From a virus (lineage: Duplodnaviria > Caudoviricetes), in the IMG/VR virus record IMGVR_UViG_2706794555_000001, positions 34,702 through 98,701 of that record: a stretch of 64,000 nucleotides of DNA. One strand, written 5' to 3'. The notes under the pieces are model-generated. The model ran no database searches. It was given only the letters and a program-made list of their open reading frames with translations, and was not told the origin of the DNA. Positions 48,732 to 49,871 of this stretch are shown here, piece after piece. The translations under genes were made by a program, and so were the position numbers. Position 1 is the stretch's first letter, and each line of letters opens with the position of its first letter.

Positions 48732-49441
48732 TGAAGGGCCCCGACGTCGAGCAGGCGCGCGCCGAGGTACACCAGGCGGAGACCGAGCTTGCCTCGGGCG
48801 GGAAGGTCGCCTTCGAGCACCTGCACCGACTCCGGGATCGGTGGCGTCACGCGGACCTCGCCGCCCAGGGTGCGCAGGCGCGGGCCGAGTCGGAGCGGGT
48901 CCGGGCCCGCCTGGAGGCGCTGACGGCGGTGGGGGCGGAGGTCGAGAACACTGCGGCTGCGGAGCCGGGCCAGGCGCTGCGGGAGGCCCTGGCCGAGGTC
49001 GCCCGGGTCTGCGCCAGGGTGCGTGCCCTCGCGGACGGGCACGATGCCACGGTGGCGGCCCTGGTGGCCGCGGCGGTGGACCTGCAGGTCGAGGCGAAGG
49101 CGCCGGCGGGTCCGCGCGCCACCTCGGGGCACGTGGCCGTGGAGGGCCGCGCGATCGTGCACAAGGCGGTCAAGCTGGTGCCGGTGCGGGACCTGGTCGA
49201 GCAGGCGTTGCAGCACGCCGTCACGGGTGATGTGGAGCGCGCCGCGGGCATGGCGCGGCCGGTCGTCGAGGTGCCGGCGGCCAAGCGCCCCGATCACCTG
49301 CTGCGGGGCCGTAACGGCGTCCTGCACCCGATCAGCGGGGACCTCAACAACGGCATGCAGGCGCACGTGCGCTCGGGCGAGGTGGTGCCGCTGTCCGACA
49401 CGGACGTCGACCGGTGGATGCGCGGTGAGCTCGGTGAGTGA
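48713..49441 (+). CDS. Hypothetical Ala-rich coiled-coil protein
   Basis: AGGAG RBS; overlaps the next gene. Confidence 0.6.
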   Translation: MAASSVMKGPDVEQARAEVHQAETELASGGKVAFEHLHRLRDRWRHADLAAQGAQARAESERVRARLEALTAVGAEVENTAAAEPGQALREALAEVARVCARVRALADGHDATVAALVAAAVDLQVEAKAPAGPRATSGHVAVEGRAIVHKAVKLVPVRDLVEQALQHAVTGDVERAAGMARPVVEVPAAKRPDHLLRGRNGVLHPISGDLNNGMQAHVRSGEVVPLSDTDVDRWMRGELGE

Positions 49442-49871
49442 GTCCACGGCCGAGCTGGCGGTGCACTTCGCGGCTGCGGCGCATCACGCGGACGCGGCGG
49501 CGCTGTGCGACTCGGCGGCGTTTATGGCCCGGGTCGCGGCCTTGGGGCCCGATTCGCCGGGCTTCGTGGCGCGGGTGTCCGCTGCCGTGCAGGAGGCCGC
49601 CGCAGGGGCGCAGCAGCCCGTCCAGGCCCCGGAGACCGGGCAGGACGCCGGTGCGGCCGGTAGCGGGCCGTCGGGGCTGTCTGGTGCGAATGTGCGGGTG
49701 CTGCAGCAGTCGGCGCGGCGGGCGATGCTGACCCAGGACTACGCGGGTGAGATCACCGAGCAGGAGGTGCGGGACGCTGAGCCGCACGTGGTGGCCGCCT
49801 GGGCGACCGCGGGCAAACTCGCCGGCCTGGGCATCCCCGCGCAGAAGCCCCGCGGACGCCGGAGGGCTTGA
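49434..49871 (+). CDS. Shortened homologue of the prophage scaffold protein (145 aa)
   Basis: GTG start overlapping the previous stop; aligns by eye to the C-terminal half of 7152-8015. Confidence 0.7.
   Translation: MSESTAELAVHFAAAAHHADAAALCDSAAFMARVAALGPDSPGFVARVSAAVQEAAAGAQQPVQAPETGQDAGAAGSGPSGLSGANVRVLQQSARRAMLTQDYAGEITEQEVRDAEPHVVAAWATAGKLAGLGIPAQKPRGRRRA

Follow-up and report, generated by a model that had tools for sequence, protein, structure and literature searches.

A 145-aa homologue of the C-terminal half of a phage scaffold is a candidate scaffold mimic on a capsid-less mobile element of an actinomycete

Here, we describe a short gene in a 64,000-nt stretch of DNA (the window; positions 34,702 to 98,701 of IMG/VR virus record IMGVR_UViG_2706794555_000001), which holds a prophage and, on the other side of a tRNA gene, an inserted mobile element that carries the gene. 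We found that this mini-scaffold gene (window positions 49434-49871, (+) strand; 145 aa) is homologous to only the C-terminal half of the 287-aa protein encoded at the scaffold position of the prophage (7152-8015, (+) strand), and we lean toward the interpretation that its product mimics a scaffold and that its carrier is a phage-parasitising (hitcher) mobile element. Because the mini-scaffold copies only the rear half of the scaffold, it probably binds to the coat protein of the phage and thereby hijacks or blocks head assembly, and the outcome may be either small capsids or plain interference. Binding to the coat protein, an influence on capsid size, and encapsidation of element DNA are steps that we infer. 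The interpretation is suggested by the homology itself, by the duplication on the element of the gene at the prophage's position for the terminase small subunit (TerS), by the nature of the carrier (mobile, capsid-less, and equipped with replication genes), by the occurrence of the module in other capsid-less contexts, including two genomes with a mini-scaffold gene and no cognate scaffold or capsid, and, by analogy, by the precedent of CpmB and Rcm.

Spurious long open reading frames (ORFs) are common in high-GC actinomycete DNA. An earlier reading of the same DNA without database searches (the sequence-only reading) had placed a 145-aa gene starting at GTG 49434 inside the longer ORF 49023-49871, and this gene call was borne out. 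Specifically, the frame plot revealed that third-position GC content switches at ~49,400 from the frame of the upstream gene (48713-49441) to the frame of 49434, in which it amounts to 0.85-0.90 as far as 49,840, and all eight homologues in our alignment A1 (123-161 aa) start within a few residues of the equivalent position. The switch in codon-position GC and the common start of the homologues show that GTG 49434-49871 is a genuine gene of 145 aa, the start of which overlaps the upstream TGA (49439-49441) by 8 nt. The alternative in-frame start GTG 49425 is possible but fits the homologues poorly. The 18 sequencing runs that contain the sequence are all soil-metagenome DNA, with no RNA run among them; four of these 18 that we assembled gave contigs of 150-400 bases with joint sides of <30 letters, which were not usable.

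BLASTP aligned the mini-scaffold to the prophage protein without gaps (E = 4e-9; 24/61 identities; residues 1-61 against scaffold residues 160-220), as the sequence-only reading had proposed, and a profile of nine mini-scaffolds (A1, i.e., that of the window and its eight homologues; 147 positions) returned only two matches in the 8.46-Mb genome, namely the mini-scaffold gene (E = 3e-60) and the scaffold at window positions 7638-8012 (E = 3.2e-16). The relationship is thus significant in pairwise as well as in profile comparison. Since the match to the scaffold extends over profile positions 4-145 (of 147), the homology includes the C-terminal tail; both sequence blocks that had been paired by eye, tail included, are also paired in our 72-row alignment A3, in which the mini-scaffold and the prophage scaffold share 40 identities over 124 aligned columns. 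Nothing in the mini-scaffold aligns before scaffold residue ~160 in A3, i.e., scaffold residues 1 to ~159 have no counterpart, in agreement with the earlier statement that the N-terminal leader and the long coiled coil are missing. Likewise, both proteins match phrog_15186 and phrog_8952 (E = 2.4e-9 and 4.4e-7, respectively, for the mini-scaffold), with the scaffold covering these profiles in full length and the mini-scaffold covering only positions 157-259 of 270 and 162-243 of 261. No Pfam or NCBIfam family was matched by the mini-scaffold, the scaffold, or the 242-aa protein encoded directly upstream of the mini-scaffold. An in-frame ATG of the prophage scaffold gene (Met160, window 7629-7631) lies exactly where the alignment with the mini-scaffold starts; because no conservation of this methionine was seen among the other full-length relatives examined, its position is probably a coincidence rather than a nested start.

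The prophage protein is taken to be a scaffold from the position of its gene and from database names. It comprises a leader, a Pro/Ala-rich stretch, a coiled coil, and then the domain shared with the mini-scaffold, and its gene sits between those of a MuF-like minor head protein (5812-6738) and the major capsid protein (MCP; 8104-9018, (+) strand), the latter assigned as Phage_capsid_4/P22-coat-like by family matches and a capsid profile. The TerS-position gene (phrog_5536; 1413-1886, (+) strand), the gene for the terminase large subunit (TerL) that directly follows it (1890-3200), and the portal gene all lie upstream. The prophage protein also matches gp5 of phage Jace, which is encoded at the same gene position (E = 7e-13). 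Among the related genomes, 35 of 401 contain a match to the family; in nearly all of the 29 matches examined by tblastn, the full-length scaffold aligns from residue ~60-120 on, and in five of these 29 a homologous capsid gene comes next after the scaffold-position gene. A tblastn search of a phage collection with the scaffold and with the mini-scaffold gave no match. With the capsid profile, we found that 8104-9018 is the only member of its family in the genome, and this MCP is the presumed target of the mini-scaffold. The prophage scaffold (window 7152-7240) and 21 listed full-length relatives are headed by a leader with the consensus PGAIIGYRRNGxPIxLIAGGS, which the mini-scaffolds lack.

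The AF2 model of the mini-scaffold (mean pLDDT, 86.4) consists of a four-helix N domain (residues 4-59), a disordered linker (60-83), a helix (84-98), and a helix-turn-helix-like tail (109-132) with a basic C-terminus; conservation in A1 is concentrated in the N domain and the tail, and the linker is variable. The top matches of the model in BFVD were the 'Scaffolding protein' entries of Gordonia phages Jace and VanLee (probability 0.98 and 0.97; E = 0.18 and 0.25, respectively), and a VIA-wide fold search returned generic helical bundles only (Z ≤5.3; residues 1-65 only). A sequence search of the PDB with A3 matched only one chain, a 'Putative DNA-binding protein', at a non-significant E-value of 0.73. 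This weak match and the basic helix-turn-helix-like tail are what would be expected if the gene were a helix-turn-helix DNA-binding regulator of the element or a leftover of a decayed prophage, in either case with no capsid role, and one further copy of the gene appears broken: the mini-scaffold of an uncultured Actinomycetota metagenome-assembled genome (L002, ~9950-10290; G402:C18:319588-319886) is split over two frames, and its 242-aa partner gene is likewise divided in the gene calls, which reflects either decay or an assembly error. We nevertheless consider such a leftover or regulator quite improbable, given the many diverged short forms with starts of their own, the maintained operon partner and conservation pattern, and the fact that the same domain and tail end the prophage scaffold-position gene, with a capsid gene coming next in five loci.

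How widespread the short forms are emerged from a profile search of 1.84 billion representatives, which gave 617 matches at E ≤0.001. Among the best 150 of these, 36 are ≤175 aa in length, and most of the others are 200-350 aa long with the domain in their C-terminal half. Two types of tail occur, one close to that of the full-length scaffolds and the other, found in the mini-scaffold of the window, with an extra helix. Moreover, eight proteins of 170-245 aa (P0016, P0025, P0032, P0038, P0046, P0080, P0029, and P0092) join an N domain to two tandem tails, six of them having both tail types and two having one tail repeated; because of these tandem and repeated tails, the putative coat-binding tail behaves as a discrete, duplicable module. 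A weak match in another genome (G124; L029) was not reproduced with the A3 profile.

For a phylogeny, 72 rows were chosen from ~160 proteins together with the window and a Streptomyces locus (L001), and three were dropped for gaps; the resulting midpoint-rooted tree (69 rows, 99 columns) includes some short rows that are possibly fragments or products of mis-called starts. The mini-scaffold of the window falls in a clade, starred in the tree, of 29 rows consisting exclusively of short or double-tail forms. The prophage scaffold is in the other clade (40 rows), which is composed of 11 short proteins and every one of the 29 full-length proteins. Since the mini-scaffold and the prophage scaffold belong to different clades, the sequences indicate an old lineage rather than a recent truncation of the neighbouring scaffold. 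The earlier claim that the gene derives from a helper scaffold therefore stands only in part: homology to the C-terminal half of a scaffold holds, but a recent origin from the scaffold next door does not.

The mini-scaffold gene is coupled to a conserved upstream gene (48713-49441, (+) strand), which the sequence-only reading had not linked to it. The start of the mini-scaffold gene overlaps the stop of this partner by 4-8 nt in all five loci in which both were called (the window, L001, L040, L041, and L042; heuristic gene calls), and in Kitasatospora sp. GP30 the two homologues have consecutive locus tags, with the partner being more conserved than the mini-scaffold (73% versus 57% identity). 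The model of the 242-aa protein (pLDDT, 87.4) combines a long helical hairpin of ~90 residues (34-123) with an alpha/beta domain (130-240). It is tempting to view the pair as a two-piece alternative scaffold, in which the 242-aa protein would form the coiled-coil core and the mini-scaffold the coat-binding end, with neither working alone; the overlapping genes, the consecutive tags, the hairpin, and the stronger conservation of the partner would all suit such an arrangement. We judge it unlikely, since the 242-aa protein shows no relationship to the leader or N-terminal half of the scaffold (BLASTP E = 0.76; hhalign probability 0.23%), so that a location of the leader motif inside the partner was rejected, and since its model has no fold match: Foldseek searches of PDB and BFVD gave nothing at E ≤0.001, the VIA-wide search found generic coiled coils only (best Z, 7.4), and the PDB sequence search returned only non-significant rows. 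A scan of IMG/VR found no member of the 242-aa family, and its profile matched one of 23 genomes of the genus, i.e., only the genome of the window itself.

The carrier of the pair was delimited with the help of related genomes. In three relatives with an empty site (L046, L045, and L051), DNA matching 37196-37891 abuts DNA matching 63644 onward with an overlap of 1-2 bases, and a fourth (L050) shows a gap of ~19 bases; therefore, the insert comprises 37892-63643, a single insertion of 25,752 bp. A tRNA-Arg(TCT) gene adjoins the insertion site in seven of seven relatives; in the window, 622 bp separate the site from tRNA-Arg. A gene for a large serine recombinase (37923-39524, (+) strand) begins 31 bp inside the left end, and the short overlap at the junctions fits a serine-integrase crossover. 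The prophage, which encodes a tyrosine integrase (36111-37145), and the element flank one tRNA-Arg on opposite sides. Exact and short-BLAST searches for attachment-site repeats of the prophage gave chance matches only, and nothing close to the prophage in this genome corresponds to the left flanks of the relatives.

The element contains a D5-type primase-helicase gene (43182-44774, (+) strand; DUF5906, D5_N, and Pox_D5; phrog_6088, E = 7.5e-72) that is directly followed by eleven 9-bp GGACCGGGT iterons (44783-45046). These are the only copies in the window, where 1.72 would be expected, and none of 100 shuffles reached 11; the array is a probable origin of replication. Next come two copies of a TerS-like gene, each with a partner of ~84 aa for which no family was matched. 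Copy 1 (46784-47362, (+) strand; phrog_5536) aligns with the prophage TerS-position gene through the C-terminus (E = 5e-10) and is followed by its 84-aa partner (47359-47613, (+) strand; 77% identity to L001). Copy 2 (47607-48113, (+) strand; phrog_5536, E = 3.6e-34) matches the prophage gene with its N-terminal 92 aa only (E = 7e-13) and is likewise followed by an 84-aa partner (48088-48342, (+) strand), assigned by gene calls and by comparison with L001. Phage relatives of the TerS-position gene are the first or last gene of their genomes; among 20 relatives listed, one is named 'terminase small subunit' and 19 are named 'HTH DNA-binding'. An excisionase-like HTH_17 protein, resembling recombination directionality factors (RDFs), is encoded directly upstream of the 242-aa gene (48339-48731, (+) strand) and is conserved in L001, L041, and L002, so that the mini-scaffold gene is preceded by the HTH_17 and 242-aa genes and followed by an XRE regulator gene.

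Further genes of the element encode this XRE regulator, a membrane protein, a tyrosine recombinase, a DUF4236/SHOCT protein, a GntR regulator, an FtsK/SpoIIIE (TraB-type) DNA translocase (56675-58831, (−) strand; phrog_1358, E = 1.3e-13; no Pfam match), and, near the right end, an HNH endonuclease (62290-63021; phrog_826, E = 2.6e-42). Terminase-associated HNH proteins serve packaging in some phages. None of the 30 element ORFs scanned matched capsid, portal, TerL, or tail families. An 87-aa protein in the conjugative part (54496-54759) has a 53%-identical copy in the early/lysogeny region of the prophage (33922-34143; tblastn E = 2e-14) and is possibly a regulator common to both.

Two known classes of element thus come together in one insertion. 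Phage-inducible chromosomal islands (PICIs) have a size of ~10-15 kb and are induced by a helper protein. Of their gene content, we found an integrase, a replication module with an adjacent probable origin, TerS-like genes, a candidate capsid-morphogenesis gene, and no structural or lysis genes among the scanned ORFs; the differences are the integrase, here a serine recombinase instead of the usual tyrosine type, and the size of 25,752 bp. Actinomycete integrative and conjugative elements are defined by an FtsK/TraB-type translocase, a GntR-type regulator, an integrase, and a replication gene, all of which are present within the same insertion, as judged from its gene content. The description of the carrier as a satellite in the sequence-only reading consequently needs qualification: the carrier is capsid-less and mobile and has copied the prophage TerS-position gene, but it is an insertion above the classical PICI size with FtsK/TraB-type conjugation genes.

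The cassette was also found elsewhere. All seven genes are present at 44-77% identity in Streptomyces sp. TP-A0356 (L001), with the order of the two pairs of TerS-like and ~84-aa genes swapped (7326-8878 of L001 versus 46784-48342 of the window); a copy of IS21 and a distant FtsK/TraB-like gene (26% identity) are located nearby. This genome lacks both a full-length scaffold and a capsid of this family, and altogether two genomes carrying a mini-scaffold gene have neither, as judged from searches backed by a positive control. In L040, the 242-aa and mini-scaffold pair is located near an FtsK-like gene; in L041, the order is HTH_17, 242-aa gene, and mini-scaffold gene; and in a soil metagenome contig (L042, 1582-7480), the pair is followed by genes for a 92-aa protein, a tape-measure protein of 1317 aa, and a minor tail protein that is Dit-like, and the pair and the tail genes are not separated by a capsid gene. 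From these varied contexts, we conclude that the cassette moves among different capsid-less elements.

If the mini-scaffold is a scaffold mimic, events might proceed as follows. A helper phage of the P22-coat-like actinophage type, for which the neighbouring prophage is the obvious candidate, would develop in the cell, and the mini-scaffold would be made together with its 242-aa partner. Its conserved, basic-ended helix-turn-helix tail and the preceding four-helix domain would occupy the sites of the phage scaffold on the coat protein. Because a protein without the leader and the long coiled coil could not build a normal scaffold core, procapsid assembly would be either redirected toward smaller or altered shells or spoiled, and the two TerS homologues would steer the helper terminase onto element DNA.

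An alternative to this scheme is a purely defensive function. In that case, the mini-scaffold would be a dominant-negative scaffold fragment that caps coat sites and aborts the heads of infecting phages, protecting the host population and the element, with neither small capsids nor packaging. A productive scaffold would need a leader and a coiled coil, and their lack in the mini-scaffold is consistent with such interference, as are the element's own FtsK/TraB-type route, which would make a ride in capsids unnecessary, the size of 25.75 kb, which is large for a one-third-size capsid, and the presence of the module in two genomes without a cognate prophage. It is hard, however, to see why the element would have two TerS homologues and a conserved partner for each of them if its own DNA were not packaged, and the L042 pair followed by tape-measure and Dit-like tail genes points to particle formation; we therefore regard interference alone as a rather doubtful account. 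About equally tentative is a more elaborate form of the scaffold-mimic reading, in which the carrier, residing in a Streptomycetaceae-like actinomycete, would be an integrative conjugative element of the TraB type with two exits, conjugation and stolen capsids. Its cassette would be complete (two TerS genes with partners, the RDF-like helix-turn-helix protein, the 242-aa protein of new fold, and the half-scaffold), the 242-aa protein and the mini-scaffold would replace the helper scaffold and resize the capsid to 25.75 kb, and its own TerS would package the element; the helper would be, e.g., the prophage across the tRNA-Arg, and the cassette would move between conjugative and tape-measure-bearing satellites.

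Several observations weigh against a scaffold mimic. The designation of 7152-8015 as a scaffold comes from gene position and database names, both PHROG families that it matches are listed there as of unknown function, and the annotated scaffold of phiSASD1 has no significant similarity. Coat binding is a prediction from sequence likeness, and the mini-scaffold tail resembles a DNA-binding helix-turn-helix. Moreover, the mini-scaffold is only 32-39% identical to the scaffold of the neighbouring prophage and belongs to the other clade, so that this neighbour may not be its helper, and the left end and size of the prophage were not located, so that no size ratio backs small capsids. Finally, an insertion of this length with conjugation genes is unlike a classical small satellite.

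Among characterized systems, the closest parallel is CpmB of SaPI1, a Staphylococcus aureus pathogenicity island (SaPI) with helper phage 80alpha (scaffold gp46). CpmB is likewise a small helical protein of an island without a capsid gene (PMC5644958, PMC12409344); it has the C-terminal coat-binding end of the helper scaffold, as the mini-scaffold has the C-terminal half of the prophage scaffold (PMC12409344); and it is encoded beside cpmA, as the mini-scaffold is beside the 242-aa gene, both elements having a TerS of their own (PMC5644958, PMC12409344). Unlike CpmB, the mini-scaffold shares a whole domain of ~125 residues instead of a short motif, comes from another host phylum, and has a predicted effect on capsids. 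No Pfam family connects the mini-scaffold to CpmB, and no CpmB chain appeared at E ≤1 in the PDB search with A3. A second parallel, Rcm of SaPIpT1028 (helper phi7206), is described in the same source as binding the MCP and as necessary and sufficient for small capsids (PMC12409344). Rcm resembles the mini-scaffold in being a multi-helix protein similar to a larger multi-helix scaffold of its helper, and competition for capsid protein has been proposed for it (PMC12409344); the two sequences are unrelated in the searches made, and the effect of Rcm is experimental, whereas that of the mini-scaffold is predicted.

In actinobacteria, the EPIP satellites of Mycolicibacterium are 11 kb in size and form free particles, and no conjugation genes are reported for them (PMC12822802). 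Likened by description, EPIPs are capsid hijackers, as the window element would be, and the two have in common their actinobacterial hosts, TerS, a serine integrase, a helix-turn-helix protein, and a gene called scaffolding protein, and the EPIP tape-measure gene recalls L042, in which the mini-scaffold gene precedes tape-measure and Dit-like genes (PMC12822802). MulchRoom, MiniFlayer, and Ando, which are satellites of Streptomyces, have capsid, portal, and terminase genes of their own and no primase (PMC10690885, PMC13587820). They are from the same host family and are helper-dependent, a property that for the window element would follow from its gene content (PMC10690885, PMC13587820). Unlike these satellites, the element encodes a primase-helicase, and what it copies is confined to TerS and one half of a scaffold, with no capsid, portal, or terminase large subunit found. 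Compared with the actinophage scaffolds themselves (phrog_15186 and phrog_8952; Jace gp5), the mini-scaffold shares the four-helix domain and C-terminal tail but not the N-terminal half (a leader in a subset, then a coiled coil), the length of 200-350 aa, the Pro/Ala-rich stretch, or a gene location between the portal/minor head and capsid genes. The combination that marks the CpmB and Rcm type, i.e., a capsid-less carrier with the C-terminal end of a helper scaffold, is present here, with dependence on a helper presumed.

Capsid-reshaping satellites comprise a handful of systems (P4 Sid, SaPI CpmAB, Ccm, Rcm, and PLE TcaP), and in most of them the likeness to the helper scaffold is a short motif. 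Here, a whole scaffold domain persists in Actinomycetota as a gene family of its own, which is old and diversified, and the mini-scaffold with its 242-aa partner provides a clean means to tell the part of a scaffold that binds the coat protein from the part that sets capsid size. The carrier is unusual in that one 25.75-kb insertion unites TraB-type conjugation genes with a replication and packaging module like that of PICIs; we found no description of such a combined element in the literature on satellites or on conjugative elements with satellites or small terminase. If the module works as proposed, it would provide a marker for phage-dependent elements in antibiotic-producing actinomycetes.

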